Source: Armatimonadota bacterium
Lineage (GTDB): Bacteria; Sysuimicrobiota; Sysuimicrobiia; Sysuimicrobiales; Humicultoraceae
NCBI GenBank assembly: GCA_052386995.1
Contig: JBQTJP010000110.1
Location: forward strand, 30,481-94,480
DNA length: 64,000 bases
Reading direction: 5' to 3'
The first letter of the stretch is position 1. Each line of letters opens with the position of its first letter. The notes below the pieces were generated by a model. The model made no database searches. It had not been told where the DNA came from and saw only the letters and a program-made list of their open reading frames with translations. Of this stretch, positions 12,176 to 59,695 are shown piece by piece. A program made the position numbers and the translations under genes.

Positions 12176-12648
12176 CGCCTGCGCGCTCCCGCGGTCGTGG
12201 CTTTCTTCCCCGCGCGCGGATCGGGGGCGACTGCGCTGGGTACCGGTTCGAAGCTCGGCAGTGTGTACCGCCTCCCAATCGGGCGGAAGACGACGCGCAC
12301 GGGCATCCCGATGAGCACCGCATCGGTCCGGCAGTTCACGACCGTGCTGACCATCATCGGGCCTTCGTGCAGCTCGATGGCGGCATACACATACGGCGTG
12401 GGAAACGCCGGGTCGTGCTGGGCCCGCTGCACCGTGAAGGCGAATACCTTTCCCCGCCCGCTGGCCTGTGTCCATTTCAGGTTCTCAAGGTACGGAGCGT
12501 TGGGGTGCTCGCGGCAGCCCGCCAGCGGCCAGCGCCAGGCTCCGCACACGTCGCAACATAGCAGCAGAAACTCGTTCCGCCGCAGGCCCTCCCAAAATGG
12601 CCGCATTTCCTCGGTGGGATTCGGGTCCGGCCCTTTCCAGTCGCTCAT
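12172..12648 (-). CDS. DUF35 Zn-ribbon/OB-fold protein (thiolase/aldolase partner subunit)
   Basis: CCDVCG...C Zn-ribbon followed by an OB-fold. The start is MSDWKGP (ATGA overlap with the thiolase stop). Confidence 0.65.
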   Translation of the reverse strand: MSDWKGPDPNPTEEMRPFWEGLRRNEFLLLCCDVCGAWRWPLAGCREHPNAPYLENLKWTQASGRGKVFAFTVQRAQHDPAFPTPYVYAAIELHEGPMMVSTVVNCRTDAVLIGMPVRVVFRPIGRRYTLPSFEPVPSAVAPDPRAGKKATTAGARRR

Positions 12649-13853
12649 GCCGCCCGCCGGTGCGGTTGCGTCGTCAACACAATCGTGGAGTGGATCGAGC
12701 ACATCTGCCCGGACAGCACTTCGGCGCCGTGTCCGGAGACCAGCGCGACTTCGGCGTCGGCCACCTGTCGCGTACCGCCCTCGCCCCGCAACTGAATGAC
12801 CGCCTCGGCAAAGCCGGTCAGGTTGCCCAGGTGGTGGGAGGACAAGAGTCCACCGCCGGTGTTCACGGGGATGTCGCCGCCGGGCGCGGTCCGCATCTCC
12901 GCTGCGAAGGCGCCGCCCTCGCTCTTTCCGCACCAGCCATAGTCTTCCAGCTGAAGAATGACCTCGCCCGTGAAGCAGTCGTACAACTGGGCGAGATCCA
13001 CGTCGGCCGTGGTAATGCCGGCCTGCCGGAATGCGGTCTCGCGCGCGCCGTGCACCGCGAGCGTCGTGTAATTCGTCTTGTCCCACCACAACTCGGCCAT
13101 CTGCTCGCCAAATCCGATGCCGCCCATATACACCGGCGGCCGGCGCAGGTCGCGCGCGCGCTCCTCCGTGGTGACGATGAACGCGGTGCCACCGTCACTC
13201 TGGAGGCAAATGTCGAACAGGCGGTACGGCCAGACGATCACCGGCGATCGCTGGTGATCCTCCAGCGTCAACGGCCGGTCATGCAGGTAGGCGCGTGGAT
13301 TCAGGTTCGCCCACCGCCGCGTGGCGACGGCCACTGCACCGAGCTGCTCGCTGGTGGTGCCGAATTCATGCATGTGGCGGCTGGCCAGGAGGCCGTGATA
13401 GGTGGGCGCGTTCGCGCCGAAGAGCGCGGCCCATGAGTTCTGCTTGGCGGCATAGGACTGGCCGCGCTTTCCCGACCCCTGCTTTGCCGCCTGACTGCGA
13501 CTCCAGTCGTCGCGCGCGCCCGAGCACAGCACGTAGTCGGCGATGCCATGATCGAGCAGCCCGGTCGCCGCGAGCAACGCGTGGCCCGCGTACTCGCCGC
13601 CCCGACCCACGTTCTCCAGGTACAGGTTGACCGGCAGGTTCAGCACCCGGGCGAACGAGTCGTGATGCCGAGGACGCACACCGCCTCCCGCATCGCTCAG
13701 CATCTGAACCGCCGCGCCGATGTCGTGCGCCGCCAGACCCGCATCTTCCATGGCGAGTCGCGCGGCCTCCACTTCGAGCATCAGGACCGACCGGCCGGGC
13801 AGATGCCCGACCTCGGTGACGCCGAGTCCGACAATCGCGTAGCGTCCTCTCAT
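12645..13853 (-). CDS. SCP-x / lipid-transfer-protein-type thiolase-like enzyme (thiolase or retro-aldolase, Ltp2-like)
   Basis: Thiolase fold. DUF35-associated subfamily. Confidence 0.75.
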   Translation of the reverse strand: MRGRYAIVGLGVTEVGHLPGRSVLMLEVEAARLAMEDAGLAAHDIGAAVQMLSDAGGGVRPRHHDSFARVLNLPVNLYLENVGRGGEYAGHALLAATGLLDHGIADYVLCSGARDDWSRSQAAKQGSGKRGQSYAAKQNSWAALFGANAPTYHGLLASRHMHEFGTTSEQLGAVAVATRRWANLNPRAYLHDRPLTLEDHQRSPVIVWPYRLFDICLQSDGGTAFIVTTEERARDLRRPPVYMGGIGFGEQMAELWWDKTNYTTLAVHGARETAFRQAGITTADVDLAQLYDCFTGEVILQLEDYGWCGKSEGGAFAAEMRTAPGGDIPVNTGGGLLSSHHLGNLTGFAEAVIQLRGEGGTRQVADAEVALVSGHGAEVLSGQMCSIHSTIVLTTQPHRRAA

Positions 13854-27964: not shown

Positions 27965-28029
27965 GGATCACCTCCGATTTATCCAGAAGCTCTCCGTCGG
28001 TCGGGGAACGCTGCAGGACCGTCCTTCTC

Positions 28030-28135
28030 TTCGGCAGCCCGGCTGTCTTGGAAGTATCGTCCAAGACCCGTAGCTTTGCGTCCCCGAATCACTTCGGGTT
28101 TGCCCTTGTCGGAGAGTTCCGGTGAATGGGATCTC
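28030..28135 (-). ncRNA. Candidate c-di-GMP-I (GEMM) riboswitch in the 5' leader of the G8/beta-helix gene
   Basis: The minus-strand RNA reads ...GGGCAAACCCGAAGUGAUUCGGGGACGCAAAGCUACGGGUCUUGGACGAUACUUCCAAGAC... It carries the conserved GGCAAAC element, a P2 hairpin capped by a GNRA tetraloop (CCCGAA-GUGA-UUCGGG), the invariant GGACGCAAAGC element and a P3 hairpin (GUCUUGG...CCAAGAC). An SD (GGAGG) and a GTG start follow about 60 nt downstream. Confidence 0.5.
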
Positions 28136-53884: not shown

Positions 53885-54023
53885 CTAGCCGGAAACGGTC
53901 AGCCGATGCCTCCCTTTCGCTCGCCGGCGCTGGAGCGTGCGGCGACCGCCCGGCGTACGCATGCGCGCACGAAACCCATGCACCCGGCGGCGGGGACGCG
54001 TCTTTGGCTGAAAGGTTCGCTTC
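53885..54023 (-). CDS. rpmH: 50S ribosomal protein L34
   Basis: (V)[21 protein letters not shown]...; GTG start. Confidence 0.85.
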
Positions 54024-54112
54024 ACGTGGCTCCCCCCTGAGAGCAGGCCTACTATAGCACAGCATGGAAACCGCGGCCACGACTCCCCCCGAGTCCACGC
54101 CAAGATCCGAAG

Positions 54113-54373
54113 TGTGAACAGCCTGTGGGCAATGCCCCCGTTATCAACATCTTTGCCTGGGGCCCGCCCATCCTGGCAGCGCCGCCGCGGTTCAATAGAG
54201 CAGCAGGCAGCCGCTTTGTCCACACCGCGATGCCAGTTATCCACACGATTCTCCACACCTGTGGACAACCCGAGAAACACGTATCAACGTTGTCATTGCG
54301 CCGGGCCTCTACGCCGCAGGAAGCCGGTACAATCGTGGAGAATTCTGCGCTCAACCGGCCTGAATTGTCCACA
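54113..54373. promoter_or_regulatory. oriC part 1: DnaA-box cluster between rpmH and the gene upstream of dnaA
   Basis: Perfect TTATCCACA at 54237-54245. One-mismatch boxes are TTATCAACA (54141), TTGTCCACA (54216, 54365 and reverse at 54260) and TTCTCCACA (54249). Weaker boxes are at 54113 and 54124. Confidence 0.75.
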
Positions 54374-54487
54374 ATACTGCCACGCGGGTGACCGTCCCCG
54401 GGTCGGCGTGAAATCCGCAAGCTCCCGGCCTGCGCGATAGGAGTCCTGGAGCCTGCGGCCAACTACGATTTTCGCACCTGAGGGGCA

Positions 54488-55270
54488 ATGTCGATACGGG
54501 ACCTCATTGCCCGGCTGACGGAGGAGCGGCGCACAGCGCCCCCCCCCGAAAGGGAGGAGCCCGAAGTCAGGCTGGCGGTTTATGATTCACCGGCGGCACA
54601 CCCTCAGGTCGTGTCGCTGCGCGGAGACGATTTTCACGCCCTCGTCGGCGAGATTGCCGCGCGCACCTATGGCGTCTCGCGTGAGCGGGGCGGAAGAGTT
54701 CCGTATGTGGTAATTCGTGAGATCGTAGAGAACTTGATCCACGCCTATTTTCAGAATGCCACGGTCACGGTCTTAGATGACGGCAACACCATCCGCATCT
54801 CCGACCAGGGGCCGGGCATCACGAACAAGGACCTGGCTTTCCTGCCAGGATTTTCTACCGCCACAACGGAGATGCGGCGAGTGATCCGGGGAGTGGGAAG
54901 CGGGCTTCCAGTGGCCAGGGAGCAGTTGAATCTGCTCGGCGGGACCGTGACCATTGAGGACAACCTGGATCAAGGGACCGTCGTCACGCTGAGTCTCCGC
55001 CGGGACCCGGGGCCGTCGCTCCCCGGCGATCGCCCGGCCCGCCATCGGCCCGAGGTGACCCCGCGTCAGAAGAAGGTGCTCTTGCTCATCGCGGAGCTCG
55101 GCGCGGCCGGACCGATGGCGATCGCCAGAGAGCTCGACATCAGCCACAGCACGGCGTACCGCGAGCTCCAAGCTCTCCAATCACTGAATCTCGCGACCGG
55201 CAAAGGACGGGGCAAACGGACGCTCACTGAAGAAGGCATCGCCTACCTCGACGAGGTCTTCAAGTCTTAG
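54488..55270 (+). CDS. GHKL (histidine-kinase-like) ATPase domain protein fused to a C-terminal winged-helix HTH
   Basis: N box (EIVENLIHAYFQNATV), G1 (DQGPGI) and G2 (GVGSGL) of HATPase_c. The C-terminal MarR/ArsR-like wHTH is LLIAELGAAGPMAIARELDISHSTAYRELQAL. Confidence 0.6.
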   Translation: MSIRDLIARLTEERRTAPPPEREEPEVRLAVYDSPAAHPQVVSLRGDDFHALVGEIAARTYGVSRERGGRVPYVVIREIVENLIHAYFQNATVTVLDDGNTIRISDQGPGITNKDLAFLPGFSTATTEMRRVIRGVGSGLPVAREQLNLLGGTVTIEDNLDQGTVVTLSLRRDPGPSLPGDRPARHRPEVTPRQKKVLLLIAELGAAGPMAIARELDISHSTAYRELQALQSLNLATGKGRGKRTLTEEGIAYLDEVFKS

Positions 55271-55286
55271 GGCCGGGCACCGGCCC
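55270..55286 (+). terminator. GC hairpin immediately after the GHKL-wHTH gene stop (no U-tract)
   Basis: GGGCCGG-GCA-CCGGCCC. Confidence 0.3.
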
Positions 55287-55318
55287 ACGCAGCCGCGCAC
55301 TCAGAGAGGAGACGGCTC

Positions 55319-56671
55319 GTGTCCATCGACATATCGCCCACCACGTTGTGGACGGAAGTCCTCCGTCGAATTGAAGGTCATCTTAACAAGCCCACGCTCG
55401 AGTCGTTCCTCAAAGTCATCAGACCCATCGGTCTCCAAGGCGACACGTTTGTGCTGGCCGTGCCGAATCGCTTTGCCCGCGACTGGATCGAGCAGCGCCT
55501 GCTTGTCACCGTGCGCGGCGCGTTGTCGGCAGCGATTGGCCGGGAGATCCAGGTGCAAATCACCGTGGCGGAGGTCCCGCCTCCGGCCGCTCCCGTTCGC
55601 GCGGCGCCGGCGCCTGCGGCGCCTCCGCGGACCACGGAAGGGCTGCACCTGTCGCCCAAGTACACGTTCGAGACGTTCATCGTAGGCGCCGGGAATCGCT
55701 TCGCACATGCGGCGGCGATGGCGGTGGCCGAATCCCCGGCGACATCCTACAACCCCTTGTTTATCTACGGTGGCGTGGGGCTGGGAAAGACCCATCTGCT
55801 GCAGGCAATCGGGCATGGCGTGCTGCGCCGGGCCGGTGTCGCGCGGGCAGCATATATCAGCAGCGAAAAATTTACGAACGAGCTCATTAACGCGATTCGC
55901 GACGACAAAACCCTTGAGTTTCGCCACCGGTACCGCAATGTCGACGTTCTCCTCATCGACGACATACAGTTCCTCGCCGGAAAGGAACGCACACAAGAAG
56001 AGTTCTTTCACACTTTTAACACGCTTCACGACGCCAGTCGCCAGATCATCATCACATCCGACCGCCCACCGAAGGAGATCCCGACCCTTGAAGACCGGCT
56101 GCGCAGCCGATTCGAATGGGGCCTGATCACCGACATCCAGCCGCCCGATCTGGAAACACGTATCGCCATTCTCCGCAAGAAGGCCGAAACCGAAGGGATT
56201 TCTGTGCCCGATGAAGTAGCCGAGTTTATCGCGCAGCGTATCTACACGAACATCCGCGAACTCGAGGGCGCCCTCGTACGTGTCGTCGCCTACGCATCAC
56301 TTACGCGGTCTCCTATCACCGTCGAACTTGCCGCAGACGTGCTGCGGGATCTGCTGCCTCCGACGCGTTCACGCATTGTGACCATCCAAGCTATTCAAAC
56401 AGCCGTAGCGGAATTCTTCCGAATTCGGCCAGAAGAAATGCGGGCGAAACGCCGCACAAAAGACCTAGCGTTCCCACGTCAAATTGCCATGTATCTGGCA
56501 CGAGAACTCACGGACGCATCGCTTCCCCGCATCGGTGAAGAATTTGGTGGGCGAGACCACACCACGGTCATCCATGCTTGTCAGCGGGTGCGCGAAACTC
56601 TTCGCGGTGACGCCCACCTTACAGCCAGCCTCAAACGACTGACCGAAGATCTTCAGCGACACAGTGGATAA
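55319..56671 (+). CDS. dnaA: Chromosomal replication initiator DnaA
   Basis: AAA+ Walker A (GGVGLGKTHLL), the DnaA signature and the C-terminal HTH. GTG start with an SD. Confidence 0.95.
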   Translation: MSIDISPTTLWTEVLRRIEGHLNKPTLESFLKVIRPIGLQGDTFVLAVPNRFARDWIEQRLLVTVRGALSAAIGREIQVQITVAEVPPPAAPVRAAPAPAAPPRTTEGLHLSPKYTFETFIVGAGNRFAHAAAMAVAESPATSYNPLFIYGGVGLGKTHLLQAIGHGVLRRAGVARAAYISSEKFTNELINAIRDDKTLEFRHRYRNVDVLLIDDIQFLAGKERTQEEFFHTFNTLHDASRQIIITSDRPPKEIPTLEDRLRSRFEWGLITDIQPPDLETRIAILRKKAETEGISVPDEVAEFIAQRIYTNIRELEGALVRVVAYASLTRSPITVELAADVLRDLLPPTRSRIVTIQAIQTAVAEFFRIRPEEMRAKRRTKDLAFPRQIAMYLARELTDASLPRIGEEFGGRDHTTVIHACQRVRETLRGDAHLTASLKRLTEDLQRHSG

Positions 56672-56877
56672 CCTGTGCATAAACATCAAAATGGACGAGA
56701 TTGAAAGCTACTCCTATTACAAGGGCATCTTTTATCCCCGTCCTAACCACAATAAGATTCACAGACTCATAAGCTCCACGATCCAAACAGAGTGGACTCT
56801 TTACTGGTTATCCACATCATCCACACCATCTACTACTACGACGGTTTTATTAATATAATATATAGAGGAGAATAACT
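56672..56877. promoter_or_regulatory. oriC part 2: dnaA-dnaN intergenic DnaA boxes plus an AT-rich DNA unwinding element
   Basis: Perfect TTATCCACA at 56808-56816, followed by TCATCCACA. A box also overlaps the dnaA stop (GGTTATCCACT, reverse). The AT-rich run TTTTATTAATATAATATATAG (56846-56866) sits in a genome of ~70% GC. Confidence 0.75.
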
Positions 56878-57987
56878 ATGTTCTTCACTTGTTCACACGA
56901 GCACCTTAATCGCGCGGTCGCTCTTGTTGGACGAGCTGTGTCATCGCGTGTGGCTATGCCCATTCTCAGCAATATTCTCATCGAGACAAAAAAAGATTCT
57001 GTGAAGTTTGCCGCTACGGATCTGGATCACGGGATTCAAACTGAGATTCCCGCGACAGTGAAAAAAGGCGGAGCCATCACCATACCAGCTCGGCTGTTTA
57101 CGGAAATTGTGACCAATCTTCCGAATGCGTCTATTGACTTTAAAGTGGCTGATAACGGACGAAACGTTGAAGTACAATGCGAACGTATAACGTACGATCT
57201 AGTCGGATTACCGGCCACCGATTTTCCGTTGATGCCGGAACCAGATTCAACACCTGTCGTCACGATCGAAGCTGGAGTATTGCGTACAATGGTTCGTCAA
57301 ACTAGCTTTGCGGTGTCAACAGACGAAACGCGGGTATTTTTAACTGGCTTGTACTTGGGCTTGGATGGCAAGGACGCTAAAGTGGTGGCTACAGATGGTG
57401 GACGATTGGCACTGCGGTCTGTGACACTGACATCTCCGAGCAGACAAAAGGTTGGAGTAATCATTCCCTCTAAAACCATGCAAGAACTCACACGGGCCCT
57501 GGCAGGTGTAGAGGGGGATGTAGATATCTCTTTAGCTGAGAACCAGATCCTGTTCACACTGCCGGCAGCTAGACTCGTCAGCCGGCTCATTCCCGGACCG
57601 TTTCCGAACTATCAGCAGGTCATTCCTCAAGGACACAAGCAGAAGCTGACGGTTGGAACGGAGCGGTTTATGAGTGCCGTTCGGCGTGTGGCAATTACGG
57701 CTCGGGACTCGGCCAATGTCGTGCGTCTGCAGGCGAACGCCGATACACTAACGCTCTCTTCCAGCACCCCGGAGTACGGTCGGTCTGAGGAGACTCTTCA
57801 GGTAACGGCCGAAGGAGAAACCGTCCCGACGGCCTTCAACGCACGCTATTTGCTCGATTGCCTGGGCATCGTGGAAGCGGACGAAGTGACGCTTGAGCTC
57901 ACGGGGCCGCTTAGTCCCGGAGCCCTTCGGCCCGTGGGACACACGGACTACACGTACGTGCTGGCGCCGGTTCGCGTTGCCACCTAA
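56878..57987 (+). CDS. dnaN: DNA polymerase III beta sliding clamp
   Basis: Typical DnaN three-domain sequence. Confidence 0.95.
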   Translation: MFFTCSHEHLNRAVALVGRAVSSRVAMPILSNILIETKKDSVKFAATDLDHGIQTEIPATVKKGGAITIPARLFTEIVTNLPNASIDFKVADNGRNVEVQCERITYDLVGLPATDFPLMPEPDSTPVVTIEAGVLRTMVRQTSFAVSTDETRVFLTGLYLGLDGKDAKVVATDGGRLALRSVTLTSPSRQKVGVIIPSKTMQELTRALAGVEGDVDISLAENQILFTLPAARLVSRLIPGPFPNYQQVIPQGHKQKLTVGTERFMSAVRRVAITARDSANVVRLQANADTLTLSSSTPEYGRSEETLQVTAEGETVPTAFNARYLLDCLGIVEADEVTLELTGPLSPGALRPVGHTDYTYVLAPVRVAT

Positions 57988-58273: not shown

Positions 58274-59351
58274 TTACGAGCGCGCCGATCTGACCGTCGG
58301 GCCCGGGATTACCGCCTTCGTCGGTCCGAACGCCGCGGGGAAATCCAATCTGCTGGAAGCGATTCACCTGGTGGCTACCGGACGCTCGCATCGAACGCTG
58401 CGCGAGGGCGAGGCGATCCGCCATGGCGAGACGAGCGCGCGCATCCGGGCCCTGGTGACACGACGCGGCCATGATGAGGATCTCGACATCACGCTTGTGG
58501 CTGAAGATGGACGGGAGCGCGTCCAGATGCGCGTCAACGGGGCTCCGATGCCCCGCAGTGGGGTGCTCGGCAGACTGCCGGTCGTTCTGGCGGCGCCGTG
58601 GGATCTGGATGTCGTCCGTGGGCCGGCGGGCGGCCGGCGGAGGTTGCTCAACGGCGCACTATCGCAGCTCAGTCCGGCCTATCATTTCGCCGTGCACCGC
58701 TATCATCGCGTGATCGCCCAACGGAACACCGTCCTCCGCCAACGATGGCCCGAAGGGTTGCAGCCGTGGGATGCGCAGATGATCACGCTGGGGGCTCGGA
58801 TCACGGCGCGGCGCGGCGAGTATGCCGGGCGGCTGGCTGCGGCTGCCCACAGGTGGTTCGAGCGTCTGGCCGGCGGGGGCTTTTTTCGGGTTGCCTATCG
58901 AGCGGCCTGGAGCGGAGGCGACGACGCGGAAATTGCCGAGACCGGACAGATGGAACTTGCCCGCTGCCGGGCCGATGAACTTCGGCGGGGGGTGAGTGTC
59001 ACCGGCCCGCACCGTGACGACCTCGAACTGACACTGGACGGTGCGCCGCTGCGCGCCTGCGGCTCGCAGGGAGAGTGGCGAGCGGCGATGCTGGCGCTGC
59101 GGTTGGCCGAGCGTGCCGTGATGGCGGAAGACCTCGGCGCGCCGCCGGTGTTGCTGTTGGATGATGCGCTTGCCGAGCTCGACGCCGGCCGGCAACGCCG
59201 CTTGCTCGAGACCGATGACGAGGCGCAGGTGCTGCTGACCGCTACCGAGCTGCCTCAGGCGGGGCCTTTGAAAGGCGCGCTGACGATCGTCACGGTGGAC
59301 CATGGACGCCTTGGTGAAGGAGTATGGTTACCCCAATTCGATCCATCCTGA
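58233..59351 (+). CDS. recF: DNA replication and repair protein RecF
   Basis: Walker A (GPNAAGKSNLLEA) and the SMC-like signature. Confidence 0.9.
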   Translation: MLRLRRLWLRAFRNYERADLTVGPGITAFVGPNAAGKSNLLEAIHLVATGRSHRTLREGEAIRHGETSARIRALVTRRGHDEDLDITLVAEDGRERVQMRVNGAPMPRSGVLGRLPVVLAAPWDLDVVRGPAGGRRRLLNGALSQLSPAYHFAVHRYHRVIAQRNTVLRQRWPEGLQPWDAQMITLGARITARRGEYAGRLAAAAHRWFERLAGGGFFRVAYRAAWSGGDDAEIAETGQMELARCRADELRRGVSVTGPHRDDLELTLDGAPLRACGSQGEWRAAMLALRLAERAVMAEDLGAPPVLLLDDALAELDAGRQRRLLETDDEAQVLLTATELPQAGPLKGALTIVTVDHGRLGEGVWLPQFDPS

Positions 59352-59695
59352 AGGTGGCGGCACGCGCATGGGGCATCGAGCCGGCGGCCCACCTCGCCAC
59401 GGCCCGGTCGGCGTGGCCCCGGATCGCGGGGCCAGCCCTGGCTGCCTCGAGCGCTCCGCTGGCGGTGCGTGGCCGGCGCCTGCTGGTCGCCGTCACGAAC
59501 GCGACGGCCGGGCAGGAGGTTCGCCTCACGAAGACCGCCATCATGCAGGCTCTTCGGGAGGAACTGGGCGAGGGAGCTATTGTCGATGTCGTCCCCGTCG
59601 CACGGCGCCGCCTCGATTTGGGCGTCCGCGGGCCACGGCGGGTGGGTCGTGCGCTTGTCGCCCCGGGGCGGCCCCCGAAGCGCACCCACCGATAG
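59324..59695 (+). CDS. DUF721-domain protein (DciA-like putative helicase-loading factor)
   Basis: Conserved position between recF and gyrB. DUF721-like core (LAVRGRRLLVAVTNATAGQEVRLTKTAIMQAL). Confidence 0.6.
   Translation: MVTPIRSILKVAARAWGIEPAAHLATARSAWPRIAGPALAASSAPLAVRGRRLLVAVTNATAGQEVRLTKTAIMQALREELGEGAIVDVVPVARRRLDLGVRGPRRVGRALVAPGRPPKRTHR

Follow-up and report, generated by a model that had tools for sequence, protein, structure and literature searches.

The bipartite chromosome origin of Bacillus subtilis (incA/incB - dnaA - incC) has an array of DnaA-boxes upstream of dnaA, with rpmH lying divergently beyond it, and a second set of elements between dnaA and dnaN that comprises tandem boxes, DnaA-trios and an AT-rich stretch. 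There the upstream boxes give way directly to dnaA. Here we describe an origin of the same plan from a 64,000-nucleotide (nt) stretch of DNA labelled Armatimonadota bacterium (assembly GCA_052386995.1, contig JBQTJP010000110.1, positions 30,481 to 94,480; hereafter the window, through which alone the source genome was viewed), which differs from that of B. subtilis in having a 783-nt gene, here called X, between the upstream box array and dnaA. The gene encodes what reads as an ATP-binding domain of the histidine-kinase type joined to a winged helix-turn-helix (wHTH), it is conserved about as well as DnaA, and it directly precedes dnaA wherever its context could be followed. We propose, at a probability of roughly 55%, that X opens an autoregulated X-dnaA-dnaN operon and encodes an ATP-dependent DNA-binding regulator of dnaA expression, of DnaA at oriC, or of both.

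Control of DnaA is the central checkpoint of the bacterial cell cycle, and the known regulators (Hda, SeqA, DiaA, YabA, SirA, Soj, CtrA and others) are each confined to a few well-studied lineages. X joins three features, namely DnaA-like conservation, an intact ATP site together with a DNA-binding domain, and a fixed first place in the dnaA operon, and this makes it a strong and cheaply testable candidate for an initiation partner or regulator in several poorly studied, mostly uncultured phyla.

Gene X and its place before dnaA

The gene, the two domains of its product and the gene that follows it are laid out in the window as listed here.

54488-55270, forward strand: gene X, a 260-residue open reading frame (ORF) of 783 nt, with an ATG start and GAGGGG just before it
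54563-55003, forward strand: ATPase domain of X, residues 26-172
55055-55264, forward strand: C-terminal wHTH of X, residues 190-259
55319-56671, forward strand: dnaA, with a GTG start and ribosome-binding site GAGAGGAG (Pfam DnaA_N, Bac_DnaA and Bac_DnaA_C)

The first protein search returned 4329 homologues of X at an expectation value (E) of 1e-3 or lower, and 318 clusters at the 50%-identity level were found at E<=1e-30. X evolves about as slowly as DnaA: the median identity of related proteins to those of the window was 62% for X and 66% for DnaA, with DnaN at 56%, RecF at 45% and RnpA at 42%, and in the 25 most distant loci the values were 51% for X, 52% for DnaA and 34% for DnaN. The G+C content of X is that of its neighbours, and a tblastn search of plasmid and phage collections with X gave zero matches. 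X is thus a real gene under strong constraint, and because it evolves slowly, has native G+C content and lacks plasmid or phage relatives, it is no insertion and has long belonged to the locus by vertical descent.

One genome per GTDB species was scanned with two strict peptide patterns, which identified 144 relatives; 80 of these loci were fetched, and 12 further loci with identities down to 37-39% came from contig look-ups. In this sample, which is biased to the best-scoring relatives and takes no neighbourhoods from the E range of 1e-30 to 1e-10, dnaA was the next gene after X, on the same strand, in 90/90 loci that extend past X, usually with dnaN behind it; the two other loci of the 92 end at X. 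The rpmH-dnaA interval, compared in relatives as the original prediction had suggested, therefore holds X as a regular component, and a gene that had been described as 'inserted' and as no standard feature of the region turned out to be standard in this lineage and in several phyla. The loci are labelled Sysuimicrobiota (CSP1-3), Armatimonadota, 'Bacillati bacterium ANGP1', Actinomycetota (among them Ca. Aquicultoria and a Coriobacteriia-labelled genome), Bacillota and UBP13, with the proviso that taxon labels of metagenome-assembled genomes (MAGs) are not fully reliable. The closest named relatives of the window's X come from Ca. Fervidifonticultor species of the phylum Ca. Sysuimicrobiota (CSP1-3), and an NCBI MAG entry named 'ATP-binding protein' and labelled 'Armatimonadota bacterium' matches the window protein at 100% identity. 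In Fimbriimonas, a cultured member of the Armatimonadota, the origin genes are scattered and the X->dnaA arrangement is absent (PMC4072686).

The gap between X and dnaA is typically 30-70 nt and rarely exceeds 130 nt. It shrinks to 4-12 nt in three of the numbered loci (L087, L088 and L092), which suggests translational coupling there. Several loci have lost or rearranged other parts of the block. L085 (1-4366; identity 45%, cluster members labelled Armatimonadota) has genes with CarboxypepD_reg domains upstream on the same strand in place of rpmH and rnpA, with X-dnaA-dnaN intact; L091 carries a PBP-family gene (PF01161; 2929-3438) between rpmH and X and keeps the X->dnaA junction; and recF is missing after dnaN in L003, L022, L024, L035 and L039, where X-dnaA-dnaN is unchanged. 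Downstream of dnaN, L003 continues with an S4-domain gene, dciA and gyrB, and in the other four gyrB lies within about 1 kb of dnaN. Because all of these loci keep X beside dnaA, X is linked to dnaA rather than to the block as a whole. As a separate observation on L003 (X identity 63%), its gyrA product is 1255 residues long and has Intein_splicing and LAGLIDADG_3 domains (12331-12789 and beyond), so that this gyrA is interrupted by an intein.

The product of X combines a Bergerat alpha/beta sandwich fold with a wHTH fold. Residues 74-172 match Pfam HATPase_c at 56.6 bits (cut-off 26.4), and the wHTH at residues 190-257 gives several matches short of their cut-offs (HTH_IclR 21.2 against 22, HVO_A0261_N 22.7 against 35, TrmB 17.2 against 25.6), although some members of the family do exceed the cut-off for TrmB, IclR or MarR. 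The reading of this ORF as a GHKL ATPase with a wHTH, encoded between the upstream boxes and dnaA, is upheld. Residue conservation was read from two alignments, one with 30 diverse homologues and one with 42. In the 42 sequences the ATP-site residues E78, E81 and N82 (N box, E78-x-x-E81-N82) are invariant, as is the G1 motif D106-x-G108-x-G110; in the G2 motif GVGSG, G139 is invariant and G135, V136, G137 and S138 are conserved in at least 90%. T164 of the GT motif and T245 of the wing are invariant in alignment A1 only. The invariant residues of the wHTH are S219, S221, T222, A223 and R225, grouped about the point where the recognition helix starts, and, in the wing, G242 and R244. A highly conserved, family-specific beta-beta-alpha segment at the N-terminus (residues 26-72) includes A30, Y32, D33, P39, G68, G69 and P72. 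From its sequence, X appears to be a catalytically intact ATP-binding domain of the histidine-kinase/SpoIIAB type, followed by a flexible linker and a MarR/TrmB-like winged helix. Two variations on this build were noted: the linker between the two domains extends to about 60-100 residues in the Bacillota-labelled loci L077, L080, L081 and L083, and in L091 X has an N-terminal extension of about 225 residues to which Pfam gave no match.

The origin around X

The elements of the origin and its neighbouring genes were located as follows.

53885-54025, reverse strand: rpmH (ribosomal protein L34), divergent from X (Pfam Ribosomal_L34, E 9e-21)
beyond rpmH, reverse strand: rnpA, yidD, yidC and jag, in the left-to-right order jag, yidC, yidD, rnpA, rpmH
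54026-54487: rpmH-X spacer, 462 nt
54124-54373: upstream DnaA-box cluster, forming the left half of oriC and probably controlling the X-dnaA operon
54237-54268: box triad, TTATCCACA, 3 nt, TTCTCCACA, 2 nt, TGTGGACAA, a pair of direct boxes opposed to an inverted one
54405-54413, 54438-54445 and 54456-54463, forward strand: conserved blocks GGCGTGAAA, TAGGAGTC and CGGCCAAC, presumed promoter or leader of X
55270-55286, forward strand: GGGCCGG-GCA-CCGGCCC, a GC-rich hairpin that overlaps the X stop codon and has no U-tract
56663-56866: right half of oriC, with boxes at 56663 (reverse), 56674 (reverse), 56808 (forward, perfect) and 56817 (forward), trios and an AT-rich stretch
56672-56877: dnaA-dnaN spacer, 206 nt
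56878-57987, forward strand: dnaN (beta clamp, by Pfam), followed by an S4-domain gene, recF, dciA and gyrB
59324-59695, forward strand: DciA-family gene between recF and gyrB (Pfam PF05258, E 9e-14)

Six boxes with at most one mismatch occur in the rpmH-X spacer, at 54141, 54216, 54237, 54249 and 54365 on the forward strand and at 54260 on the reverse strand, the one at 54237 being perfect. Two more with two mismatches lie at 54124 and 54334 on the reverse strand. The original prediction counted at least seven upstream boxes, a figure that stands if two mismatches are allowed (eight boxes) and falls short at one mismatch (six); of the two perfect boxes that it placed here, one is the box at 54237 and the other lies at 56808, in the dnaA-dnaN spacer. 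The eight boxes amount to 17 per kb, about ten times the density in the window (1.75 per kb, at up to two mismatches). With at most one mismatch TTATCCACA has 13 matches in the 64 kb against 3.5 expected, a number reached in 0/100 shuffles, and 10 of the 13 fall in the origin region.

The upstream boxes are shared by the related loci, with 8-mers of the box in the upstream spacer of 74/79 loci and the 7-mer ATCCACA in 78/79; nearly every locus has its boxes upstream of X, and the X-dnaA gap has none. The register of the triad (23 nt from the first box to the inverted box) is common to most of them, from Sysuimicrobiota to Actinomycetota MAGs. Its middle direct box is the weaker, and the triad usually lies about 95-110 nt upstream of another box (loci L001-L084). 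Between the last box and the start codon of X, the blocks GGCGTGAAA, TAGGAGTC and CGGCCAAC scarcely vary among 15 aligned close relatives; they matched no scanned promoter consensus and gave no conserved RNA fold (RNAalifold, -1.4 kcal/mol), and an Rfam search of 53900-57000 was empty. In the Bacillota-labelled loci L077, L080, L081 and L083 the rpmH-X spacer is about 900-1200 nt long and holds 9-15 DnaA-boxes.

The dnaA-dnaN spacer carries the second half. Inverted boxes at 56663 and 56674 mark the dnaA end, and the boxes at 56808 and 56817 stand in tandem. Four nt past the tandem boxes, DnaA-trios run from 56830 to 56844 as CTA CTA CTA CGA CGG, the first three perfect (CTA x3, 56830-56838) and reading 3'-GAT-5' on the opposite strand. 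They are succeeded at 56845-56866 by the AT-rich stretch TTTTATTAATATAATATATAGA (22 nt, 95% A+T), directly 5' of the dnaN ribosome-binding site. A basal unwinding system has been defined as one or more DnaA-boxes, at least three DnaA-trios of consensus 3'-GAT-5' within 16 bp, and then the unwound region (PMC8287927), and the spacer contains this succession of boxes, trios within 16 bp and an AT-rich region. The relatives' spacers are partitioned in the same way, with DnaA-box words upstream and boxes plus trios between dnaA and dnaN; by k-mer counting, CTACTAC-type trios occur in 35/73 dnaA-dnaN spacers against 0-2 upstream spacers. The GC skew within the window changes sign at the origin, from negative upstream to positive downstream, with its cumulative G-C minimum at 56,982. 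Because box enrichment, trios, AT-rich stretch and skew minimum coincide and fit the definition of the unwinding system, the region is confirmed, as far as a 64-kb view allows, as a Bacillus-type bipartite chromosomal origin. The bipartite origin, the box pair and AT-rich element between dnaA and dnaN, and, within these 64 kb, the placement that a skew analysis was to check had all been called correctly from the sequence. The origin itself is ordinary.

Three further observations concern the surroundings. Judging by the DciA-family gene between recF and gyrB, the lineage probably uses a DciA-type helicase loader instead of DnaC/DnaI. The G+C fraction of dnaN is 0.54, against 0.64 for X, 0.68 for recF and 0.64 for gyrB, and the 2-kb composition window around dnaN is the lowest of the 64 kb (0.53), a dip that is smaller or absent in close relatives. 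Far to the left, at 28029-28113 on the reverse strand, lies a c-di-GMP-I-GGC riboswitch aptamer (Rfam RF03167; 73.2 bits where the gathering score is 59, E 2e-15), the sole Rfam family above threshold in the window.

Transcription and possible roles of X

The simplest reading of the layout, and one that we infer from it, is co-transcription of X and dnaA from a promoter controlled by the DnaA-boxes. It agrees with the earlier suggestion that X shares the dnaA promoter region, and the comparative data fit it: boxes stand upstream of X, the gap has none, and no canonical terminator was found. The scan called no terminator between X and dnaA, leaving the hairpin at 55270-55286 uncalled, and a consensus scan of the gap gave no canonical promoter. 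No sigma-70 consensus promoter was found for X on the forward strand either, a result that is uninformative since promoters of the phylum may differ from the scanned consensus. The hairpin after X is present as first described, without a U-tract and without being conserved as a class: in 79 loci the spacers between X and dnaA show no more structure than shuffled sequences (mean z 0.25), and GC hairpins recur in several relatives. It could act as an attenuator or as a stabiliser of an mRNA end.

According to the model that we favour, X would be co-transcribed with dnaA from a promoter under the control of the upstream DnaA-boxes, and because of this co-transcription the level of X would track that of DnaA. 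The protein would act at the origin or at the dnaA control region as an ATP-dependent DNA-binding regulator. Its DNA binding or its oligomeric state would be switched by ATP binding or hydrolysis, or else by phosphotransfer to another protein, DnaA for instance, and this switch would tune dnaA expression, the assembly of DnaA at oriC, or both. The idea of an origin-associated regulator, raised in the original prediction, gains strength from the synteny and is still a proposal. If X binds a conserved site at the locus, the box triad is, speculatively, the only visible candidate, because no motif other than the DnaA-box is conserved across lineages.

A bolder version of the model is possible, though we rate it less likely than not. 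X may be an ancient and so far unrecognised core component of initiation control across much of the Bacillati, taking in Sysuimicrobiota, some of the Armatimonadota, Actinomycetota and Bacillota that branch deeply, and UBP13. It would then be a GHKL ATPase or kinase made stoichiometrically with DnaA. With its winged helix it might bind the box triad or some other element of oriC, and its use of ATP would permit or hold back the assembly of DnaA, perhaps by way of DnaA phosphorylation. If true, X would represent a class of DnaA regulator without counterpart in E. coli or B. subtilis.

Several points weigh against a regulatory role for X at the origin. The rpmH-dnaA-dnaN region is among the most syntenic of bacterial genomes, and adjacency is therefore weaker evidence here than it would be elsewhere. 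In a high-G+C organism the GC hairpin could serve as a terminator, and dnaA would then need its own promoter. A candidate operator for X was not found, the DnaA-box being the sole cross-lineage motif upstream when k-mers were counted in 79 upstream and 73 downstream spacers. The wHTH of the window's X is below every Pfam cut-off, and what a wHTH domain binds is sometimes a protein and not DNA. Finally, all homologues found by protein searches and cluster look-up are proteins from MAGs or metagenomes, an uncultured origin that probably accounts for the absence of literature on X.

Among the alternatives, X might be a one-component transcription factor of the usual kind, in which a domain that senses ATP or a ligand is coupled to a wHTH. 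It would serve only the X-dnaA operon or an unrelated regulon, without a direct role in the firing of the origin or the activity of DnaA. Its architecture does parallel that of Csa3/CasR-type regulators and MarR-family repressors, and regulators often adjoin their targets and share transcripts with them. However, local regulators usually evolve fast and are gained and lost, whereas X is conserved like DnaA across phyla, its position is kept in every one of the 90 informative loci, and a conserved operator other than the DnaA-box was not found upstream. We consider this explanation unlikely.

Alternatively, X could be a serine/threonine kinase or partner-switching protein resembling SpoIIAB, RsbW or CapK, for which CapK/CapS offers a precedent (PMC13373217). 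It would act on another target such as a sigma factor or STAS protein, use its winged helix for protein binding, and lie close to dnaA only for cell-cycle-linked expression. The NCBIfam anti-sigma F model TIGR01925 scores X at 21.7 bits against a cut-off of 135, the gene tables of the neighbourhoods examined list no sigma-factor, STAS or PP2C gene, and the catalytic domain is closer in sequence to those of sensor kinases and CheA. Moreover, S219, S221, T222, R225 and R244 are invariant, as contact with DNA would predict. Membership of the SpoIIAB/RsbW anti-sigma kinase family was rejected on the model score and the missing partner genes, the anti-sigma-like switch once suggested for X found no contextual support, and a partner-switching role of this broader kind seems to us quite improbable.

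We give still less credence to the notion that X has no tie to replication and is a housekeeping gene trapped early in a syntenic block and kept there by inertia. Other members of the block have been lost, moved or interrupted (recF in five loci, rpmH in L085, the extra gene in L091), but X->dnaA was never broken, and the gaps of 4-12 nt in three loci suggest translational coupling. That the ORF is spurious, as dozens of long ORFs in this high-G+C window must be expected to be, or a recent mobile or defence insertion in the origin region, is effectively refuted: X has thousands of homologues, full-length conservation, invariant catalytic motifs and native G+C, no plasmid or phage match, and in PADLOC and PHROG searches for defence and phage families only generic wHTH or kinase-domain matches.

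X proteins are small and many come from thermophiles, which makes in vitro work with about 700 bp of origin DNA feasible without culturing. Should X prove to be no replication factor, the analysis would still flag a family of about 320 clusters (50%-identity level, E<=1e-30) that is annotated only as 'ATP-binding protein', and X->dnaA provides a practical marker for finding origins in MAGs of these lineages.

X beside known families and systems

X has no whole-protein NCBIfam model, no specific Pfam family and no close solved structure among those searched, and a full-text literature search found no prior description of an X-type gene. Its homologues are named 'ATP-binding protein', 'hypothetical', 'histidine kinase' or 'anti-sigma regulatory factor'. 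Among the resources queried, X is undescribed as a family, a structure or the subject of a paper; its component parts are familiar, and its function is proposed from them and from its context.

The closest sequence matches are to the catalytic domains of sensor histidine kinases and to the P4 domain of CheA: a profile of the X family gave its best matches to WalK, KinB, CpxA and CheA catalytic domains (E 2e-6 to 1e-4), with SpoIIAB at 2e-3, and alignments with CheA and KinB share the ATP-lid motif PGFST...GxGxG...GGxxxxxS/DxxxxGT. Unlike sensor kinases, X lacks a HisKA/DHp domain and any sensor or transmembrane part, and its neighbourhood contains no gene for a response regulator. No HisKA-type Pfam match was obtained at E<=1, and the sole invariant histidine, H85, lies in the N-box helix, with no conserved phospho-acceptor histidine outside the N box. 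A canonical two-component histidine kinase was rejected on the absence of a DHp domain, on the beta-beta-alpha segment that precedes the catalytic core, and on gene tables of the neighbourhoods that list no response regulator. Set against SpoIIAB, RsbW and CapK, X has a fused wHTH, a family-specific N-terminal segment and no STAS or sigma partner nearby. By its sequence, then, X is best described as a stand-alone kinase-type ATP-binding domain fused to a putative DNA-binding domain, outside the two-component and anti-sigma kinase families.

The combination of a sensor domain with a C-terminal wHTH recalls Csa3/CasR (CARF-wHTH) and MarR/TrmB regulators, but the nucleotide-binding domain of X is a GHKL ATPase and not CARF, and no cut-off of those families is reached. 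DIP2311 (PDB 3lmm; COG2865-type AlbA_2/HATPase_c_4/wHTH) resembles X in structure over about 161-164 residues only, at 13% identity; X lacks the AlbA_2 (Schlafen-like) domain and has no Pfam HATPase_c_4 match at E<=1, and DIP2311 is itself without a known function. Pfam and NCBIfam scans gave X no similarity to YabA, SirA, Soj, Hda, DiaA/HobA or SeqA at E<=1, nor any to the response regulators Spo0A, CtrA, MtrA and HP1021. With all of these the likeness would be one of candidate function only: all are DNA- or DnaA-binding proteins that couple initiation to a cellular signal, and several are outputs of histidine-kinase signalling. To our knowledge, none of them has a GHKL domain or is encoded as the first gene of a dnaA operon.

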